Of a stretch of DNA of 48,302 nt, positions 2,929 through 45,992 are shown piece after piece (the first letter of the stretch is position 1; each line of letters opens with the position of its first letter). Below the pieces are notes generated by a model. The model was not told where the DNA came from and did no database searches. It saw only the letters and a list, made by a program, of their open reading frames with translations. Origin of the DNA: a virus (Duplodnaviria; Heunggongvirae; Uroviricota; Caudoviricetes); the IMG/VR virus record IMGVR_UViG_3300045988_153358; one strand, 5' to 3'. The position numbers were made by a program, and so were the translations under genes.

Positions 2929-3236
2929 ATTCACTCTCACACATAAAGATAAGCGCGGTGGAGTTACTTCCTTCGTGCTCATCTTTATGCGTGCCTGGTG
3001 CGCATTTCGGGCGAACGTGGGGCTAAGTTACAGGCAGGGCCTGTTATCCGCAAAGGGGTAAAAGCTGGAGCGGCACGGAACTGTAGCCGTGTTACCAAAA
3101 CAGCGTTGTCGGGCGATATCCGGCACACAACAGGCAAGGGCATTAATCAGTCTGGTTAGTGCCCTTTTCGTTGCGTCTGCTGTAGAGCTGGCCAGCGTTA
3201 TGACTGCCGGAGATAAGCGCCGGAGGCACAACTAAC

Positions 3237-3824
3237 ATGGAGGCAATTGCATTGTTTAATCTGATTTATGCAGATCCCCCCTGGGAATACAAAGATAAGT
3301 GTAAGGATGGGAATCGTGGAGCTGGTTTTAAGTATCCAACGATGAAAGCTGAGGATATTGCTCGTATTCCTGTCTGGCAGCTTGCTAATCCTGAATCGTG
3401 TTTGTTGGCCATGTGGTGGGTTCCGACTCAGCCAGAAGAAGCGTTGCTGGTGGTGAAAGCATGGGGATTCAGGCTTATGACCATGAAGGGCTTCACATGG
3501 AACAAATGTGGTAGCCGACAACCAGATAAGCTGGTGATGGGGATGGGGCATATGACTCGTGCAAACAGTGAAGATTGCTTGTTTGCGGTAAAAGGCAAAT
3601 TGCCGACCCGCCTTGATGCGGGGATCATTCAGTCGTTTACATCGCCTCGTCTGGAGCATTCTCGGAAGCCTGATGTGGTTCGTGACAAGCTGGTAAGGCT
3701 GTTAGGTGATGTTCCTCGTATTGAGCTGTTTGCTCGCGGTGATTTACCTGATGGTTGGCATGGCTGGGGCAACCAGTGCAATGGAGGTATCCAGTTGCAT
3801 GATGCTCTCTGGCAAGTGGCATAG
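3237..3824 (+). CDS. MT-A70 family N6-adenine DNA methyltransferase
   Basis: DPPW catalytic motif (IYADPPWEY). Confidence 0.8.
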   Translation: MEAIALFNLIYADPPWEYKDKCKDGNRGAGFKYPTMKAEDIARIPVWQLANPESCLLAMWWVPTQPEEALLVVKAWGFRLMTMKGFTWNKCGSRQPDKLVMGMGHMTRANSEDCLFAVKGKLPTRLDAGIIQSFTSPRLEHSRKPDVVRDKLVRLLGDVPRIELFARGDLPDGWHGWGNQCNGGIQLHDALWQVA

Positions 3825-3936
3825 AATTATATAATTATAGATTTATATAAAAAGTGCTTTACAGGTGGGAAAAAATTTCCTATGGTTATACCCGAAACCG
3901 AGCGATACCCGCCCTGGTTAAACCGGAGATAACCCG
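3821..3936 (+). promoter_or_regulatory. promoter-leader cassette copy 1: AT-rich upstream element, TTTACA, 17-nt spacer, TATGGT, conserved leader with GGAG ribosome-binding site
   Basis: 118/119 identical to 35286-35404 and about 100 nt identical to 44816-44918. Confidence 0.7.
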
Positions 3937-4206
3937 ATGAAAGTACAAGACCGTGAAGTAGTAAAAAACCTCCTGCAATACCTGACCTCAAAAAACCTGA
4001 CGGGCAGCGTTGAGTTCCGTGAAGCGTTAAAACATTTCAACGTCACTACGGTTTATCGTTGGGAAAACAAACATTCTGAAAGACCGTATGTGGTGGATGT
4101 TTTTGCGCCTGATATTGAGTGCGGTTTTGAGCGCCATTCATTCAAAAAGAAACATTCCGCTGATGTTTTTTGTGAGGTTGTATGTGCGGCAGGAGATGAT
4201 GAGTGA
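3937..4206 (+). CDS. hypothetical protein (89 aa), first gene after cassette copy 1
   Basis: ORF track; conserved leader and ribosome-binding site. Confidence 0.6.
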   Translation: MKVQDREVVKNLLQYLTSKNLTGSVEFREALKHFNVTTVYRWENKHSERPYVVDVFAPDIECGFERHSFKKKHSADVFCEVVCAAGDDE

Positions 4207-4403
4207 TGCGTATTTCCTTCAAACGTGCGACTGAGCAGCAACGCAAAGAGTTCCTGGCTGATGATGTTGCGGCCGTTTATGACCTCATGAAAGAGGTTGT
4301 GGAATCAGGAAACTACACGGCGGCAAAGATGCTTAAACTGCAATTCTTGCTGGGCGACCTGAAATACAAATCCGAAGTTGTCGCCGGACGACGCGAGCAT
4401 TAA
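4203..4403 (+). CDS. hypothetical protein (66 aa)
   Basis: ORF track; start overlaps upstream stop. Confidence 0.5.
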   Translation: MMRISFKRATEQQRKEFLADDVAAVYDLMKEVVESGNYTAAKMLKLQFLLGDLKYKSEVVAGRREH

Positions 4404-5325: not shown

Positions 5326-5340
5326 TTTTCAGGTGATGTT

Positions 5341-5751
5341 ATGGAAAAGAAAGAAGATAAACCGATTGCCATTGGTGCAGAGTCTGTTCCGTTTAAGTTT
5401 GAATTATCCCAACTGGTAACAATGCGTATCAGTGAAGAGTGGGGAGAAGTTCAAGCCCGTGCTCAGTATGCAAATGGCGAAAACCAGTATCTGATTCACT
5501 ATCAGGCGGCTGATGGCCGTGCTACCACAGAGTGGTTCGGTGAGTCGATGCTGATTGCGATGGAGGATAAACGTCATCCTGGCTGCCCTGTTTTTGCCTG
5601 TATTGATTTGCCAGAAGGCGCGGTACTTGAAGACGACAAAGAAGAATGGTCGCCTGATGGCGAACTTGTCATTACCGGAATCGTGGATGGTAAGCCGGAA
5701 TATTCCCGTATTGAGGTAAATAACGGCCACATCTGTTTGATCCCTGCGTAA
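5341..5751 (+). CDS. hypothetical protein (136 aa)
   Basis: internal ATG with AGGTGA Shine-Dalgarno downstream of the terminator. Confidence 0.55.
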   Translation: MEKKEDKPIAIGAESVPFKFELSQLVTMRISEEWGEVQARAQYANGENQYLIHYQAADGRATTEWFGESMLIAMEDKRHPGCPVFACIDLPEGAVLEDDKEEWSPDGELVITGIVDGKPEYSRIEVNNGHICLIPA

Positions 5752-15570: not shown

Positions 15571-16614
15571 ATGCCGAATATTGATATTTTTGAACGACGT
15601 ACGATGCTTGAGCCTGTTATTCAGAATTTCAAGGCTCGTCGTTTTCTTCTTCGTACCTTTTTTCCTGGTGTTCAGACCTTTAATACAAAGAAAGTTGATC
15701 TGGATTTTGTTCGCGGTGGCCGTACTATGGCTCCGTTTGTTGGTAAAGGTTTTGGCTCAAAAACCGTTGAGCGACGCGGCTTTGTAACGAGAACTCTGGA
15801 GCCACCACTTGTTGCACCTGATTTGGTAACAACAGCCGAGCTGCTTTTAAACAGGCTTCCGGGTGAGAATATTTACAACGCAAAATCGCCAGCAGAACGA
15901 GCCGCCGAGCAATTAGGTAAAGATTTGCTTGAGCTTGATGAAATGGTTAACCGCCGTGAAGAATGGATGTGTGCACAAGTCTTGTTTACGGGGCAGGTTG
16001 ATATTGTTGGTGAAGGAGTGGATGACACAGTTTATTTTTGGCCTGAAGAGGAAGGAGATAAACCATATCTTGAACTGACAGGTGATGATTTATGGAGTGC
16101 AGCAAAATCAGATCCGTTAGTCAATGTTCGCAACTGGAAACGTCGGGTATCACTAACTTCAGGTTTTACACCTCGTGTTGCCGTAATGGGCGCAAAAGTT
16201 GTTGATGCCTTCGTTAAAAATGAAGCAGTAACTAAATATCTTGATAATCGCCGAAAAGAGCTTGGGTATATTGAGCCTAAAGAGTTAGAAGAAGGCGTAA
16301 CTCATTATGGCAATCTTGAAGGTGTCGATTTTTATGGTTACGACGAACTTATTCGCAATGATAAAACAGGAAAACCTGAACCATTAGTACCGGAAGATAA
16401 GATCCTCTTTGGCTCTCCTGGTCGAGGAACGATGCTGTATGGTGCTGTAGAGCTTGTAGATGACGCCGAAAAGACTCTAACGATTGTTGAGTCACCACGA
16501 GTTCCAGACACTTGGGTAACTCGTAAGCCGGCTGGCCGTTATGTTGCCATGAAGTCATCTCCACTGCCTAATCCTGGTGTGGCTGATGCCTATCTGGTGG
16601 CTAAGGTGGTTTAA
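15571..16614 (+). CDS. major capsid protein (lambda E-like)
   Basis: 347 aa; size and position; C-terminal pattern resembles E family. Confidence 0.8.
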   Translation: MPNIDIFERRTMLEPVIQNFKARRFLLRTFFPGVQTFNTKKVDLDFVRGGRTMAPFVGKGFGSKTVERRGFVTRTLEPPLVAPDLVTTAELLLNRLPGENIYNAKSPAERAAEQLGKDLLELDEMVNRREEWMCAQVLFTGQVDIVGEGVDDTVYFWPEEEGDKPYLELTGDDLWSAAKSDPLVNVRNWKRRVSLTSGFTPRVAVMGAKVVDAFVKNEAVTKYLDNRRKELGYIEPKELEEGVTHYGNLEGVDFYGYDELIRNDKTGKPEPLVPEDKILFGSPGRGTMLYGAVELVDDAEKTLTIVESPRVPDTWVTRKPAGRYVAMKSSPLPNPGVADAYLVAKVV

Positions 16615-17007
16615 ATGGCCAGACTGATTAAAAACATTGATACGATAAGCCACGGCTCGCTAAAAGCGGGCCGTTTGCTTAATGGGCTAATGGATAACTC
16701 CAGAATTGCCGAACTGATTGCGTCAGGACATGCTATTGCCACCGAAGAGGATGGTGATTTGGCATCGGCTGGGGGCTATGATGCTGCTAAGTTAGCTTTT
16801 GAGCATGGATACGCATCTGCTGTTAATGATGCTGTGGACGCGGGGTTGATTACGCGAACGGAGGCGGGTAGCTGTGTATTCGAGGTTGAGTTTGAGGATG
16901 ATGGCGGCAATGAGGAAATGGTTGCTGATGATTCATCTGAATCTGTAGCTACTTCTGATACCAGTAATGCGAAAAAATCAACGCAAAAAAAAGGTAATAA
17001 GAAGTAA
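16615..17007 (+). CDS. hypothetical head-associated protein (130 aa, acidic C-terminus)
   Basis: ORF track; position in morphogenesis module. Confidence 0.5.
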   Translation: MARLIKNIDTISHGSLKAGRLLNGLMDNSRIAELIASGHAIATEEDGDLASAGGYDAAKLAFEHGYASAVNDAVDAGLITRTEAGSCVFEVEFEDDGGNEEMVADDSSESVATSDTSNAKKSTQKKGNKK

Positions 17008-31685: not shown

Positions 31686-32155
31686 AAGATAATCATGTGA
31701 CCAATTATTGTAATAATTTTAATGGTATGTTTCTACTGGCTATCCAGCGTGTCTGATATCCAGTAACAAATCGTCAACACGGGTGCAATCAAATGGTGAG
31801 TGTTAAGACTGACCACTTATTACCAGGTATGAGTGGCCAGCATTAAATCAGAACAGCCCTTTAACTGAACTGGCCGCGCTGTTAAGGGATGATGTCACCT
31901 TATCTTTGAAGCCGGACAGCATATTGCTGAACGATGAGTTTACCGCAGGTTTCTGGCTGGGAATCATTGACTGGAGTTAGGCCAGTAGTATGATGCTCGC
32001 AAAACGAGATCCAATTTAGATCCTTTTACTGGTGGATTATCGTTCGATCAGTGAGAGACTTCGTGCATGACCGAAAGTGTTGTGGTAGAGTTCTCTTAAA
32101 ACCACGTAACGTGGTTATGATTGTGGGTGTCTGGTTGGAAAGTGACCAGATATGG

Positions 32156-32268
32156 AAACAAAAAGCCCGCAGATAAATCTGCGGGCTTCTTGCGACATCC
32201 ACGGAAAACCAACAATTAACCATGGGCGCCTCGACAACTCCCATTATACGTTGGTTTTCCGTGGACGC
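32156..32268 (-). ncRNA. candidate CopA-like antisense RNA region for repA control
   Basis: 16-bp perfect inverted repeat 32198-32213 / 32250-32265 with about 36-nt loop; 10-bp hairpin 32163-32188 followed on the minus strand by a U-run. Confidence 0.45.
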
Positions 32269-32280
32269 AAGAGCGAACAT

Positions 32281-33129
32281 ATGGATAGACCAATGCCGTC
32301 TCTACGTTCAGCTTACGTTTGTAATTTGTCGCCGGAGTTCCAGCGTCCAAAGCACCATACGCACAAGCTGCCGCTGGTGTTATCTGATGCTTTACAGCGC
32401 ATTAATGGGCGTGATCTTACGTGTGAGGTTGCGTTCTACGTTAATCAACCGTCAGAGCGGAAGCGCCGGATAAACGAGCATCGTCGTCGGGCGATTAATG
32501 CTGTGATCGCTGCGATTTTGCACCATGTAAACATCATTTCTAAGCGGGTTCTGGCTAGTGCTGAGGCGTTGGCTGATTTTTGCGGCCTGTCTACCGTATC
32601 CGAAGCTGGGAACAAGTCTATAACGCGCTGTACAAGGGCGTTGTCGCAACTGAAAGCGTTAGGTTTTATTGATTATGAACGTCGCTGGGATCGGGTGAAT
32701 AAACAGTATTGGCCAGCGAAAATAGAGATTCGTGATCAACTGCTGGAAACCGTTGGTATTACTGAACAAGCATGGAGACGTGCGGTTAGCCAGAAACTTA
32801 ATTACTTCAATGCGAAGAATAGCGAACGGCTTAAAAAAGCGATAACGGAGGCTGATTATAAGCGTATTGTTATTCAGGAGCAGATGGAGAATGTATGGCG
32901 TCAGAGGAAGACGGCCAGAGAGATAAAGGCAAAACAGAAAGCAGCGGAGAGAGCTGCGCGTCTTGTTCGGGAAAAGGGAGAGGCCGAACTTCGTCATCAA
33001 ATCACCAGAGAGGTTAGTCAGGAATTTGCTGATGGCATGTATCCTGGTGCTGACCTTGCATATTTACGATCCCTCGTTGAGCAGCGTTATAACAGGTTAA
33101 GAAAGACCTGGAAATCACTCCAACATTAA
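32281..33129 (+). CDS. repA: plasmid replication initiator RepA, IncFII RepA1-like
   Basis: central region (GLSTVSEAGNKSITRCTRALSQLKALGFIDYE) closely resembles R100/R1 RepA1; ORF extends upstream to 32152 but that stretch holds the stem-loops. Confidence 0.75.
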   Translation: MDRPMPSLRSAYVCNLSPEFQRPKHHTHKLPLVLSDALQRINGRDLTCEVAFYVNQPSERKRRINEHRRRAINAVIAAILHHVNIISKRVLASAEALADFCGLSTVSEAGNKSITRCTRALSQLKALGFIDYERRWDRVNKQYWPAKIEIRDQLLETVGITEQAWRRAVSQKLNYFNAKNSERLKKAITEADYKRIVIQEQMENVWRQRKTAREIKAKQKAAERAARLVREKGEAELRHQITREVSQEFADGMYPGADLAYLRSLVEQRYNRLRKTWKSLQH

Positions 33130-33400
33130 CCCACCTGAATGATGAATCCGGTTTTACCGGAGGATTATCTACGTCGCAATAAAATATCTGTTCAAAAAAC
33201 AATCTAAATTAATTTTCTCTAAACCTGAACACAGCAAAAATATCGCCTTTACAGGCATCGGCTAATAAAGTTATCCACAGTTCTGATATGTATATGCAAA
33301 TGGTTTTTTATAATAGATGCACTAAACAAATAAATGCAAAATCACTTTCTTTTATTAAGACTTTCTTTATTTAACTTACGCAGGCTTTGCCTGTGAATAT
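33130..33400. other. putative plasmid-type replication origin region
   Basis: AT-rich tract directly downstream of repA with a perfect DnaA box TTATCCACA at 33271-33279. Confidence 0.5.
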
Positions 33401-33772
33401 GTTCGCCCTTGCAGCGAGCTAAAGCTCGCGCCGGTTCGAGTCGCTACGCTCAAATATACCTCCTCCGGCACTTGCCGGAGGCATGGAGCAGCCTGATCAT
33501 CCTTTTCGAAACGGCACGTTTCGAACTATACAAAATCAATTTATATAAGGCCGAAATAAGGCCTACGGCCGGGCTTTGCAGGAGGAAGGGGCGAGCCTTA
33601 TCAATAAACGTCGATAAATACGCACACAGTAGCCATCAGAACGCGATAAAATGTAAGAAACATCATTTCCTATTAGACATAGAAAACTTGTCTTATACGC
33701 AATGTAGTAAATTTCTATTGCCACATAGGAAAAGATTTCCTACCATCGTAGATATAATAAATGGAGATGGTT

Positions 33773-34060
33773 ATGGATAAAGATACTGTTTTAAAAATGT
33801 TGAATCCGGCTTGTTTAAAAAAAGCGGATGAATGGGAATCTCCTACATGTGGAGAAGTTCGGGCAGTCATTGGCCTGACCGGAATGAGCGGCTCGCAGTT
33901 AGCCAAAAAACTAGGCTTAAAAGATAGTCGCAATGTTCGCAACTGGCAGATGTTAAAGGAGTCCACATCCAGATCCAGCATTCCGTATGCAGCCTGGGCG
34001 CTGCTGTGTTACTTCGCTGGGTTAGGGTTAATCTTCATTGATAACAAAACAGATGTTTGA
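33773..34060 (+). CDS. hypothetical HTH protein with C-terminal transmembrane helix (95 aa)
   Basis: HTH-like GMSGSQLAKKLGL, hydrophobic IPYAAWALLCYFAGLGLIFI; GGAG Shine-Dalgarno. Confidence 0.5.
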   Translation: MDKDTVLKMLNPACLKKADEWESPTCGEVRAVIGLTGMSGSQLAKKLGLKDSRNVRNWQMLKESTSRSSIPYAAWALLCYFAGLGLIFIDNKTDV

Positions 34061-34083
34061 AACATGCAAATATGAGGTTTGTT

Positions 34084-34347
34084 ATGGAACTTGTACGCAA
34101 AACACGCAAAGAGTTCTTGGACCTGTATCGCATGGGAGCTTTCACTTGTGTTGTGGCTACCCAGGACGAAGTGACAAAAAGCTGGCGGCTTTTTGCTCTC
34201 AATAAAAAAGGGATTGCCGTTTTCATTGAAAAAGCCCGTGGTGGTATCCGCGAATGGGCGGGATTGAATTATGTGGCTGATTTTTGCGCAGCTATGGGGA
34301 TTCGTCGCTGGGAAGTCCATATGCCAGGAGTAAAGTCACAAAAATAG
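34084..34347 (+). CDS. hypothetical protein (87 aa)
   Basis: ORF track; internal ATG with GAGG Shine-Dalgarno. Confidence 0.45.
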   Translation: MELVRKTRKEFLDLYRMGAFTCVVATQDEVTKSWRLFALNKKGIAVFIEKARGGIREWAGLNYVADFCAAMGIRRWEVHMPGVKSQK

Positions 34348-34535
34348 GGCTTTCGCGTCGAAAATGAGGCGAAACTGAAAACGAGATTTCATTAACAAAT
34401 AAGCAACATAAAAAACGGTGGAAAACGCCCAGGAAAACATGATCTTTTGAGCGGATTTTTTAGATCCGACAATGAACGGTGATCCGGTGGTGCCGATAAC
34501 GTCCATTATGTTAAATAGCCCCGTTTTTCTTGAAA

Positions 34536-34581
34536 TTATAACTCACAGGTTATATAGTTAGTGATATAAACTACAGGTTAT
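34536..34581 (+). promoter_or_regulatory. two dyad-symmetric operator-like sites upstream of the toxin-antitoxin operon
   Basis: TATAAC-N6-GTTATA at 34536-34553 and TATAAA-N6-GTTATA at 34564-34581. Confidence 0.5.
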
Positions 34582-34591
34582 AGGATTGAGC

Positions 34592-34939
34592 ATGTGGACG
34601 GTACTTTTTAGCCAGCGATTTGACGACTGGCTAAATGAGCAAGAAGACGCTCTTCAGGAAAAGGTTTTGGCTGATTTGAAAAAGCTACAGGTTTACGGAC
34701 CTGAGTTACCCAGGCCATATGCCGATACCGTAAAAGGTTCTCGGTACAAAAATATGAAAGAGCTTCGCGTTCAGTTTTCTGGCCGTCCGATAAGAGCCTT
34801 TTATGCGTTCGATCCGATTCGCCGGGCCATCGTTCTTTGTGCAGGAGACAAAAGTAACGATAAGCGGTTTTATGAAAAACTGGTGCGTATAGCTGAGGAT
34901 GAGTTTGCAGCACATCTGAACACACTGGAGAGCAAGTAA
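34592..34939 (+). CDS. type II toxin, RelE/ParE superfamily (gp49/HigB-like)
   Basis: 115 aa; MWTVLF start, ELPRPYADTVKGSRYKNMKELR and VLCAGDKSNDKRFYE patterns; upstream of HTH partner. Confidence 0.75.
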   Translation: MWTVLFSQRFDDWLNEQEDALQEKVLADLKKLQVYGPELPRPYADTVKGSRYKNMKELRVQFSGRPIRAFYAFDPIRRAIVLCAGDKSNDKRFYEKLVRIAEDEFAAHLNTLESK

Positions 34940-35238
34940 TGAGAACATTAGATGAGGCGATTGCCAGCCGTTCACCTGAAAGCCAGGCGCGAATTAAAGA
35001 AATGGCAGATGAGATGATTCTTGAGGTCGGCTTGCAGATGATGCGTGAAGAACTCCAGTTATCACAAAAACAGGTTGCTGAGGCGATGGGTATAAGCCAG
35101 CCAGCAGTAACAAAGCTGGAGCAGCGCGGAAATGATTTAAAGCTGGCGACATTAAAGCGTTACGTTGAAGCTATGGGAGGCAAATTAAGCCTGGATGTTG
35201 AGCTTCCCACAGGAAAACGAATAGCGTTTAACATCTGA
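34939..35238 (+). CDS. HTH (XRE-type) antitoxin
   Basis: 99 aa; HTH LSQKQVAEAMGISQPAVTKLE; ATG overlaps toxin stop. Confidence 0.75.
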   Translation: MRTLDEAIASRSPESQARIKEMADEMILEVGLQMMREELQLSQKQVAEAMGISQPAVTKLEQRGNDLKLATLKRYVEAMGGKLSLDVELPTGKRIAFNI

Positions 35239-35252
35239 TCAGAACGAATGAT

Positions 35253-35280
35253 AAGCCCCTGTTGCAAAGGGGCTTTTTTG
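35253..35280 (+). terminator. Rho-independent terminator
   Basis: AAGCCCCT/AGGGGCTT stem followed by TTTTTT. Confidence 0.7.
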
Positions 35281-35285
35281 CGCTC

Positions 35286-35401
35286 ATAGAATTATATAAT
35301 TATAGATTTATATAAAAAGTGCTTTACAGGTGGGAAAAAATTTCCTAAGGTTATACCCGAAACCGAGCGATACCCGCCCTGGTTAAACCGGAGATAACCC
35401 G
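35286..35401 (+). promoter_or_regulatory. promoter-leader cassette copy 2
   Basis: 118/119 identical to 3821-3939; the single mismatch is in the candidate -10 (TAAGGT versus TATGGT). Confidence 0.7.
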
Positions 35402-35782
35402 ATGAGCATGATTAAAATCCGCAAAAACGCTTTCCTTAAAATTCAAACTATCCTGGCTGGTTCTGTTGGCGTGATTTGCCGTTCTTCTTCAAGCCGCATC
35501 GATGACGGCTACGATGATGAGTATCGTTTGTCCTCGTGCGATGAGGCTTTAACCTGGCTGAAGGAGAATCAGGAACGTGCCCAGGTATATCTGGAAACAG
35601 AGAACGGCAATCAGATGCTCCGTATTAGCGGTCGTTATGGATTTGAAACCACATTCATGGCCTATTTTAATCAGGCTTACTTTGACAAGGAGTTGGCCTG
35701 GTACACTGATCGCATGAGCAAAAGCGAGCCAGCCCCGATTACACCGCCGAACGATAAACCATTTTTATTCCTCGTTAAGTAA
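35402..35782 (+). CDS. hypothetical protein (126 aa)
   Basis: ORF track; conserved leader and ribosome-binding site. Confidence 0.6.
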   Translation: MSMIKIRKNAFLKIQTILAGSVGVICRSSSSRIDDGYDDEYRLSSCDEALTWLKENQERAQVYLETENGNQMLRISGRYGFETTFMAYFNQAYFDKELAWYTDRMSKSEPAPITPPNDKPFLFLVK

Positions 35783-44807: not shown

Positions 44808-44924
44808 ATCTATAAATATATAATTATAGATTTATATAAAAAGTGCTTTACAGGTGGGAAAAAATTTCCTATGGTTATACCCGAAACCGAGCGATACCCG
44901 CCCTGGTTAAACCGGAGAAATCTG
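44808..44924 (+). promoter_or_regulatory. promoter-leader cassette copy 3
   Basis: about 100 nt identical to copies 1 and 2, diverging only in the last 6-7 nt before the ATG. Confidence 0.7.
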
Positions 44925-45992
44925 ATGAATAAACAAGTAATTATTTCTGACTGGATCAACAACCCTAACAGCCTGTTAAGCACTGATACTGGCTACCTAT
45001 TACGCCATGTTAATGGTCGTATGGTCAAAAGCGATGAGCACGAAACCTTTTTCTTTGTTGAAGACGATGGGCGTATCTATGAGGATGGTTACTCTTATGA
45101 AGCCCAAACTGGTTGTATCCCTGCGGAGCTGGTGGATGTAACAGAAGATCTGCGCAAAGCATGGCTTGAACAGCAGCAGCGCGGAGATGATTACGTAAAC
45201 ACCTATCAGGAACGCCAGAACGCGCGTCTTGCCCGATATATTGCTCGTGCAGAAAAAGCCAGAAAAGAAGGTGCGGTAGCGCATAAGCGAGCGCATGACC
45301 TGTTGGATGTGATCCCGTTAGGCCAGCCGATTTTAGTTGACCATTATAGCGCGAAAGGCCATCGCCGCCGTTTGTCTAAAGCTGATGCGTTATTCAGAAA
45401 AGCGTTTGTTGAATGCGAAAGTAAAGCATCACACTACGAGAGCAAAGCCGCAGGTGTTGGTCGTAATGGAATTTCGTCTGATGATCCTGATGCGCTATTT
45501 AAGTTGCTTCGTAAGCTGCAAGGCTGCATGAAGTCACACGTCAAAATGAAGGCCGCAAATAAGGCCATTCGCAAATACAAAAAAGACCAAATACAGCAGC
45601 TTTCTGCATTAATCGATCTCAGGTTTACAGAAAGCGAAGCCAAAGAGTTACTGGCCGGAGATTTCTGTGGGCGCATCGGATTCCCTTCATACGCACTGAG
45701 CAACAATAACGCCGAAATCAAACGACTACAGAGCCGTATTAAGGAGCTTGAATCGGTCAAGTCTGTAACAGGAGCACAGCGCGAAGAATACGACGGCTTT
45801 TCTATGGAGATAGATCCAGAGGATAACCGCATCCTGTTTTATTTCCCTGGCAAACCAGAGGCAAACATTCGTTCGCTGCTTAAATCACGCGCCTTTAAGT
45901 GGAGTCCAACCCGTAATGCATGGGTTCGCAAGATTACTCCAAACGCCCTGGCTGATGCCCGATATCTGAAAGAATCGCTATTGAAAGCCTGA
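44925..45992 (+). CDS. hypothetical protein (355 aa), first gene after cassette copy 3
   Basis: ATG at 44925 at the same leader position as the other copies; the track ORF start at 44871 lies inside the promoter. Confidence 0.6.
   Translation: MNKQVIISDWINNPNSLLSTDTGYLLRHVNGRMVKSDEHETFFFVEDDGRIYEDGYSYEAQTGCIPAELVDVTEDLRKAWLEQQQRGDDYVNTYQERQNARLARYIARAEKARKEGAVAHKRAHDLLDVIPLGQPILVDHYSAKGHRRRLSKADALFRKAFVECESKASHYESKAAGVGRNGISSDDPDALFKLLRKLQGCMKSHVKMKAANKAIRKYKKDQIQQLSALIDLRFTESEAKELLAGDFCGRIGFPSYALSNNNAEIKRLQSRIKELESVKSVTGAQREEYDGFSMEIDPEDNRILFYFPGKPEANIRSLLKSRAFKWSPTRNAWVRKITPNALADARYLKESLLKA

Follow-up and report, generated by a model that had tools for sequence, protein, structure and literature searches.

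A likely KorC-type global repressor and its optional cargo gene beside the replicon of a P2-like phage-plasmid of Escherichia coli

Two small adjacent genes of a ~48-kb Escherichia coli phage-plasmid, denoted here gene A and gene B, raise the question of whether they constitute a closed functional module or belong to a larger regulatory system. The genes are located in the IMG/VR virus record IMGVR_UViG_3300045988_153358 (Caudoviricetes), which was analyzed over its whole length of 48,302 nt (hereinafter, the window). An earlier note, made from the sequence alone, presented them as a fixed two-gene module consisting of a helix-turn-helix (HTH) protein with a C-terminal membrane helix and a soluble partner, neither of them recognizable, situated between the replication origin and a toxin-antitoxin pair. 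The arrangement itself is confirmed: both open reading frames (ORFs) are real, each is preceded by a Shine-Dalgarno sequence (GGAG 6 nt 5' of the ATG of gene A, GAGG 6 nt 5' of the start of gene B), the spacing is 23 nt where about 25 nt had been given, and RefSeq calls the same pair of coding sequences, each labeled "hypothetical protein". The flanks are as described too, with an IncFII-type (incompatibility group FII) repA gene and a DnaA box on the 5' side and a Gp49/HigB-like toxin with an HTH antitoxin on the 3' side. In comparison with a relative from Citrobacter, the proportions of non-synonymous (pN) and synonymous (pS) differences are 0.09 and 0.78 for gene A, and 0.11 and 0.65 for gene B; the low pN against the high pS indicates purifying selection on both genes. 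The results described below make it likely that gene A encodes an autoregulated global repressor of the KorC type and that gene B is optional cargo on the gene A promoter.

By the alignments obtained here, gene A encodes a full-length homolog of KorC, the global repressor of IncP-1 plasmids. The annotated KorC of R772 is 51% identical to the gene A protein over 80 residues (BLASTP E-value 4e-23), phmmer gives an E-value of 5.5e-21 against KorC, and the similarity to IncP-1 KorC (~50% identity) spans the entire protein and takes in the hydrophobic C-terminal helix with the motif IPYAAWA(L/I)LC..AGLG.I. A homolog with 52% identity (P0015) is encoded directly after klcA-klcB, that is, in the korC position, in IncP-1-like contigs. 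Translated searches (tblastn) of plasmids matched 3,928 records that contain relatives of gene A, including several with a korC annotation; plasmids of the RA3 type (IncU) yield weaker matches (~30% identity). KorC is a DNA-binding global repressor in RP4 and RA3 (PMC7314908, PMC7414963). The earlier statement that neither protein is recognizable therefore fails for gene A and stands for gene B, for which no informative relative was found. Scans of gene A against Pfam, NCBIfam and PADLOC gave no match above the threshold, only weak sub-threshold similarity to HTH domains of ECF-sigma factors and of "mobile mystery protein A", and the PHROGs database places both genes in families of unknown function (phrog_8351 and phrog_4595). 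In the literature searched, nothing relevant was found that combines KorC with phage-plasmids or with anti-CRISPRs, the accession numbers and PHROG identifiers of the two genes appear in zero papers, and no report of a sequence relationship between KorC and Aca-type regulators came up. We regard gene A as a new member of a known family, in a setting (a phage-plasmid) from which KorC has apparently not been reported before.

The structural comparisons place gene A close to the Aca-type regulators of anti-CRISPR (acr) operons. A profile of its small family matches the C-terminal HTH domain of AcrIF24 (E-value 1.7e-7) and Aca3 (E-value 2e-3) in the PDB, with the shared motifs W-x-x-PT and (I/F)-AAW. 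The AlphaFold (AF2) model consists of six helices in an HTH fold (mean predicted local distance difference test score, pLDDT, 84; predicted template modeling score, pTM, 0.77), and the best Foldseek match of this model is AcrIF24 (82 aligned columns, 33% identity), followed by Aca1 and Aca2. The HTH assigned to the N-terminal part of the protein in the earlier note is thus real. AcrIE10 was also considered as a KorC-like protein and dropped because it is a ribbon-helix-helix protein.

The supposed C-terminal transmembrane helix did not withstand the same comparisons. The segment is indeed hydrophobic (Kyte-Doolittle 19-residue maximum of 1.77, residues 71-89), but the model places it in the core of the HTH domain, where residues 72-84 form a 13-residue helix, the last one of the domain, that is predicted with high confidence (mean pLDDT of 92 for residues 71-80) and is followed by a low-confidence tail. 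The stretch IPYAAWALL aligns with ISFAAWHYL, which is the last HTH helix in the crystal structures of AcrIF24. The equivalent segment of R772 KorC, ILCDQAGLGVIW, includes D and Q and has a hydropathy maximum of only 1.18; the values for three of the four other members examined (R772, Enterobacter and Serratia) are below 1.6, and only P0015 reaches 1.77. Thus, a conserved transmembrane helix of ~20 residues was not found in the family, given that the helix is short and intradomain and that the homologs carry polar or charged residues in it. When Hessa-scale values are simply added up over the gene A segment, the total is positive (+1.6 kcal/mol). The model, the alignment with AcrIF24, the hydropathy across the family and the known role of KorC in DNA binding together lead us to reject the idea of a membrane anchor.

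How gene A might be regulated is suggested by its promoter region. A predicted sigma-70 promoter with the -35 hexamer TTGCCA (33718-33723), a 17-nt spacer and the -10 hexamer TACCAT (33741-33746) precedes the gene, and a perfect 17-bp palindrome (O1; TAGGAAA-AGA-TTTCCTA) covers the spacer together with the first 2 nt of the -10 element. We predict O1 to be the autoregulatory site of the gene A protein. The block TTGC.A..TAGGAAAA.ATTTCCTACCATC is invariant upstream of gene A in relatives with protein identity of 65-87%, in which synonymous sites are saturated (pS of 0.78-0.88). Two further, imperfect inverted repeats, at 33666-33686 and 33712-33735, were considered as operators and dropped because they are not conserved in the relatives.

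The same operator recurs far from the two genes, which the earlier note overlooked, and the predicted role of gene A thus extends well past the locus. A search of the window allowing up to two mismatches identified four sites, compared with 0.25 expected in 48 kb, and none of 100 shuffled sequences reached this number. The three distant sites are identical to each other (TGGGAAAAAATTTCCTA) and, in all four promoters, the site begins 2 nt past the -35 element and ends 2 nt inside the -10 element. Each distant site is part of a near-identical cassette of ~120 bp that consists of an AT-rich 5' segment, the -35 hexamer TTTACA, the operator, the -10 hexamer TATGGT (TAAGGT in the second cassette), a leader of ~50 nt, a GGAG sequence and an ATG (Table 1). 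The 89-aa ORF behind the first cassette heads a group of small genes of unknown function and ParB/Srx-like genes located 5' of the packaging genes. The operator past the toxin-antitoxin pair is found in the same position in the relatives from Citrobacter and Klebsiella aerogenes.

The operators of IncP-1 plasmids, which were taken from the sequences of R772 and of an IncP-1-like contig, are 17-bp palindromes of the same TAGG-N9-CCTA form and likewise occur at promoters in multiple copies per element: TAGGACATTTTGCCCTA is located 56 bp 5' of klcA and TAGGGCATTTTGCCCTA 56 bp 5' of kleA in R772, and TAGGGCATTATGCCCTA is located 5' of klcA in the contig. The similarity is not limited to the operator. 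The klcA and kleA regions of R772 and the cassettes of Serratia and of the window align throughout, from the -35 context (AAAGTGCTT(G/T)ACA) through the operator and a GC-rich leader hairpin to the translation start (ACCGGAGA...CCGATG). Within the operator, only the inner bases of the arms vary between the lineages (GCA/TGC in IncP-1, in contrast to AAA/TTT in the window, and AA(A/T)/AGT as the third variant), as would be expected if the repressor and its operator diverged together. Judged by this alignment, the cassettes of the window are homologous to the promoter-leader regions of klcA and kleA, and the element carries a predicted KorC regulon of the kil-kor type. A phage-plasmid of Serratia contains three TAGGA-N7-TCCTA sites, one of them in front of an unannotated korC-like ORF. 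This ORF encodes 95 aa and lies on plasmid pJSRIV006_2 of Serratia sp. JSRIV006 (NZ_CP074139.1, ~16328-16615; positions 3655-3942 of the extracted locus L006, with the ATG at 3655) between repA and a gene B homolog, with the operator TAGGATAAAAAGTCCTA on its 5' side; the public record has no gene there.

The setting of the system differs from that in IncP-1. Its host here is a phage-plasmid whose replicon is of the IncFII type, instead of a conjugative IncP plasmid, and gene A has a promoter of its own directly past the origin whereas korC is the last gene of the klcA operon. Gene B and the proteins encoded behind the cassettes show no similarity to KlcA, KlcB, KleA, KleE, KleF or KorA of R772. 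The canonical klcA-klcB-korC context does not define the family but separates the system of this element from the IncP-1 regulon. KorC of RA3 likewise acts globally, through operators spread over several backbone modules, and its gene shares a bicistronic operon with kfrC (korC-kfrC); however, the RA3 korCp promoter is reported to be weak and constitutive (PMC7414963), in contrast to the operator within the promoter of gene A, and the downstream protein KfrC is alpha-helical and partition-related, unlike the alpha/beta protein of gene B. In IncP-1 and IncU plasmids, KorC proteins take part in the circuits of central control and stable inheritance (PMC7314908, PMC7414963), and the maintenance role that had been suggested from position alone holds in the broad sense of a plasmid-backbone function adjoining the replicon.

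Two further features of the cassettes deserve mention. The leader is predicted to form a hairpin (-16.3 kcal/mol, z-score -3.7; 3884-3945 in the first cassette and likewise in the other two) that partly covers the Shine-Dalgarno sequence, and its inner stem is common to the cassettes of IncP-1, Serratia and E. coli. At four of the eight pairs of this stem, G-C to A-U exchanges on both sides are observed, which is no more than suggestive because only eight sequences were compared; the comparison included the leaders at 2988-3048 and 5331-5391 of locus L015 and at 4298-4356 and 6638-6695 of L006. In addition, a perfect AT-rich 12-bp palindrome, AATTATATAATT, is located 5' of the -35 hexamer at 3825-3836 and in the corresponding positions of the other two cassettes. 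IncP-1 promoters have in this position GTTTAGCTAAAG, which we take to be the KorA operator, and AATTATATAATT could serve as an upstream promoter (UP) element or be bound by a second regulator.

Gene B, in contrast to the earlier description of a fixed pair, is by its distribution optional cargo and not an obligate partner of gene A. In the relatives from K. aerogenes, gene A is followed by the toxin gene, with gene B cleanly missing and the same intergenic spacer of ~240 nt, and relatives from Enterobacter also have gene A without gene B. Conversely, a KorC-like ORF is found within 3 kb of a gene B homolog in only nine of 80 viral loci, seven of which represent the same element; the homologs in the other 71 loci, as well as those in Klebsiella and Photobacterium plasmids, have no KorC-like neighbor. 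Most of the gene B homologs belong to the early regions of lambdoid prophages, where a few neighbor genes recur; the genes next to the homolog in a Klebsiella phage-plasmid are annotated as ead/Ea22-like and Ref nuclease. The pairings of genes A and B whose upstream side was covered (this element, Citrobacter, Serratia and L023; L045, the ninth of the viral loci, was left out) are all located just 3' of an IncFII-type repA gene or origin, which looks like a single historical arrangement.

The family of gene B is confined to phages, prophages and phage-plasmids. Its members share the motif ARGG(I/V)REW-GL--LA-F---GI--WEVH, including the phrog_4595 proteins of lambdoid phages and prophages (45-55% identity; for example, Salmonella phage SPN3UB and Klebsiella phage ST405-OXA48phi1.2). 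The latter are encoded among ead/Ea22-like, Ref nuclease and methyltransferase genes, whereas gene B follows the korC-like gene next to a plasmid origin. Four gene calls (P0017, P0018, P0025 and P0031) that overlap 34038-34347 of the window are frameshifted or begin at an upstream TTG (MFETCKYEV...), and were removed from the alignment of the family because they inflate its apparent diversity. The family is small: an exhaustive HMMER search of 1.84 billion representative sequences retrieved only 27 proteins, all of them short and unannotated. Gene B has no match in Pfam, NCBIfam, PADLOC or the PDB; PDB profile searches with five and with 14 sequences of the family, as well as a Pfam scan of all 14 members, also returned nothing. 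The AF2 model has a beta-alpha-beta-beta-beta-alpha-beta topology and high confidence (pLDDT of 89.5), and its Foldseek matches are uncharacterized phage proteins in BFVD and, in the PDB, only chains of eukaryotic large-subunit ribosomal proteins (template modeling score ~0.5, E-value ~0.01) that we judged uninformative.

Taken together, these observations suggest the following scheme. The gene A protein, a soluble HTH protein, probably binds as a dimer to T(A/G)GGAAA-N3-TTTCCTA, by analogy with KorC and AcrIF24, and would control four sigma-70 promoters, namely its own and those of the cassettes at ~3.9, 35.3 and 44.9 kb. Upon entry into a naive cell, where the repressor is missing, the four units would fire; as the repressor builds up, expression would drop and settle at a low level set by autoregulation. 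The IncP-1 kil-kor regulon follows the same logic of zygotic induction, for which the behavior of RP4 klcA can serve as the model: under repression by KorA and KorC, klcA is the most induced gene on entry into the recipient, by ~220-fold, an effect that has been attributed to escape from these two repressors (PMC7314908). Gene B probably shares a transcript with gene A, which would place its expression under that autoregulated promoter; the most likely role of gene B is that of an early or establishment accessory function. It does not appear to be needed for the repressor, nor does the pair resemble a membrane-associated system.

Several considerations weigh against this scheme. The -10 hexamers TACCAT and TATGGT are weak matches, and each distant operator contains one mismatch (TGGG for TAGG), such that its affinity may differ. 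The cassettes could be under the control of another regulator, with the AT-rich palindrome 5' of each -35 hexamer as its site. The gene survey of the element detected none of klcA, klcB, kle, korA and korB, and there are no KorA operators. We infer DNA binding and repression by the gene A protein from its homology; co-transcription is argued from the short spacing and from the terminator scan, which detected none between the genes; and the role of gene B is proposed by analogy rather than as a finding.

Among the alternatives, the one that survives best is an anti-defense operon of the aca-acr kind, in which gene A would be the Aca-type repressor and gene B a new anti-CRISPR or other anti-defense protein that is made in a burst when the element enters a cell. 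This possibility is compatible with the KorC-type regulon and would refine it. The closest solved relatives of gene A, by sequence and then by fold, are precisely Aca-type proteins, gene B is small and adjoining and belongs to a phage-confined family, and the regulatory logic is shared, given that dimeric Aca proteins repress strong promoters via an inverted repeat (PMC9638941). Furthermore, the KorC-controlled klcA of IncP-1 is an anti-restriction gene (PMC7314908). However, the Acr domains of AcrIF24 have no counterpart in gene A, no known acr gene adjoins it, and the gene order is opposite to the usual acr-aca order. Nothing about gene B itself favors such a function: it matches no solved Acr or anti-defense protein in sequence or fold, it carries no functional label from PADLOC or PHROGs, and most of its homologs reside in lambdoid early regions rather than next to Aca-like genes. 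Overall, we consider this alternative unlikely.

Still less probable is a role of gene A as the principal repressor of lysogeny or immunity, holding the lytic operons off, instead of a plasmid-type establishment regulator. The positions of the operators would fit such a role, given that the rightward operons behind them run into early genes and into the gene cluster located 5' of the packaging genes, but the element has other regulator candidates (among them an HTH regulator of 190 aa, another HTH protein of 220 aa and antirepressor-type Rha/ORF6N genes), both the family and the cassettes originate from conjugative plasmids, which lack a lytic cycle, and in all relatives gene A accompanies the replicon.

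A type II toxin-antitoxin system, in which gene A would encode an autorepressing HTH antitoxin and gene B the toxin, would account for the order of the genes (an antitoxin-like HTH protein followed by a small basic one) and for the HipB and HigA2 antitoxins among the weaker Foldseek matches of gene A, and another toxin-antitoxin pair adjoins the locus. For a toxin, the many gene B homologs without a KorC-like neighbor would be surprising, some relatives that lack gene B retain gene A, three more operators are located far from the pair, and gene B matches no toxin family in the databases searched; we give this possibility very little credence. The least probable of the alternatives is the original one, an HTH protein anchored in the membrane and its soluble partner serving in maintenance or superinfection exclusion, which draws on the hydrophobic segment and on the adjoining replicon and is contradicted by the helix in the HTH core, by the aligned helix of the soluble AcrIF24, by the polar residues and lower hydropathy in the family, by the DNA-binding role of KorC and by the separability of the two genes.

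The element as a whole is a phage-plasmid that encodes P2-type tail, baseplate, capsid and lysis proteins together with a RepA of the IncFII/LM type. The region of the locus is 99-100% identical to ~60 non-mobilizable plasmids of 46-51 kb, among them the 48.5-kb plasmid of the E. coli reference strain ATCC 25922, and 99.4% identical to the Yersinia phages vB_YpM_39, 41 and 44. The corresponding records (OR545053-OR545055) represent the element as infectious Yersinia pestis phages, and it has also been deposited as E. coli plasmids; the deposits in both forms imply a functional phage-plasmid with hosts in two enterobacterial families. Among 5,426 complete E. coli genomes, the region is present in 71 (~1.3%), in each case on a plasmid and never on the chromosome. 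The perfect DnaA box between repA and gene A agrees with the placement of the origin in the earlier note.

Downstream of gene B, two copies of TATAA(C/A)(T/C)(C/T)ACAGGTTATA overlap the promoter of the toxin-antitoxin pair (34530-34582) and are probably the operator of the antitoxin. A GC-rich hairpin past the antitoxin gene likely terminates rightward transcription from both the gene A and the toxin-antitoxin promoters; it was found by reading the sequence, as the terminator scan reported only its minus-strand version. The segment 3' of gene A or gene B is a variable cargo slot among the relatives (positions 3417-7469 of L012 and 3379-3786 of L009), which holds the Gp49/HTH pair here, a HicB-like antitoxin in an Enterobacter relative, and an opposite-strand block encoding FRG-domain and TPR proteins in another relative.

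Table 1. Positions in the window of the two genes, the predicted regulatory sites and the neighboring features
Feature	Position	Strand	Description
Gene A	33773-34060	+	95-aa KorC-family HTH protein, predicted repressor; WP_000356589; phrog_8351
Gene B	34084-34347	+	87 aa, basic (isoelectric point 9.9), alpha/beta; WP_000424604; phrog_4595
Promoter of the gene A-gene B operon	33718-33746	+	Predicted sigma-70 promoter (promoter scan, geometry)
Operator O1	33726-33742		Predicted; perfect 17-bp palindrome, TAGGAAAAGATTTCCTA
Cassette 1	3820-3939	+	-35 TTTACA 3858-3863; operator 3866-3882; -10 TATGGT 3881-3886
89-aa ORF behind cassette 1	3937-4206		Begins at the cassette ATG after the leader (~50 nt, hairpin and GGAG)
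Cassette 2	35285-35404	+	-35 35323-35328; operator 35331-35347; -10 TAAGGT 35346-35351
126-aa ORF behind cassette 2	35402-35782		Predicted to be driven by cassette 2; just past the toxin-antitoxin pair
Cassette 3	44809-44927	+	-35 44847-44852; operator 44855-44871; -10 44870-44875
DUF3560 protein behind cassette 3	44925-45992		ATG at 44925; predicted to be driven by cassette 3; heads an early-gene run
RepA	32152-33129	+	IncFII/LM-type; presumed origin 3' of the gene
DnaA box	33271-33279		Perfect, TTATCCACA; between repA and gene A, in the presumed origin
Toxin-antitoxin promoter	34530-34558	+	TTGAAA-17-TATAGT (promoter scan)
Twin inverted repeats	34537-34582		At the toxin-antitoxin promoter
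Gp49/HigB-like toxin	34586-34939	+	Family match
HTH_3 antitoxin	34939-35238	+	Family match
GC-rich hairpin	35254-35279	+	AGCCCCT-GTTGCAA-AGGGGCT followed by T6; terminator candidate

The outcome is more ordinary than an unrecognizable HTH-membrane module, yet it yields a clean, testable regulon. Two hypothetical proteins of E. coli plasmids become a regulatory circuit that is amenable to testing, a predicted four-promoter regulon is defined in a phage-plasmid that is also known as an infectious phage of Y. pestis, and sequence similarity connects KorC, known from broad-host-range plasmids, with the Aca-type regulators that control anti-CRISPR operons. Anti-defense and establishment functions are usually found among the genes that are transiently expressed on entry, and gene B, along with the genes behind the three cassettes, is a candidate for such transient, entry-only expression. 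A more far-reaching and rather doubtful possibility is that P2-like phage-plasmids of Enterobacteriaceae took over the whole IncP-1 kil-kor expression system, that is, KorC, the operator, the promoter and the structured 5' leader, and use it to fire uncharacterized genes in a burst on entry. If so, gene B and the 89-aa, 126-aa and DUF3560 proteins would be new establishment or anti-defense effectors, and control might extend to the post-transcriptional level through the conserved leader hairpin, as reported for Aca2.

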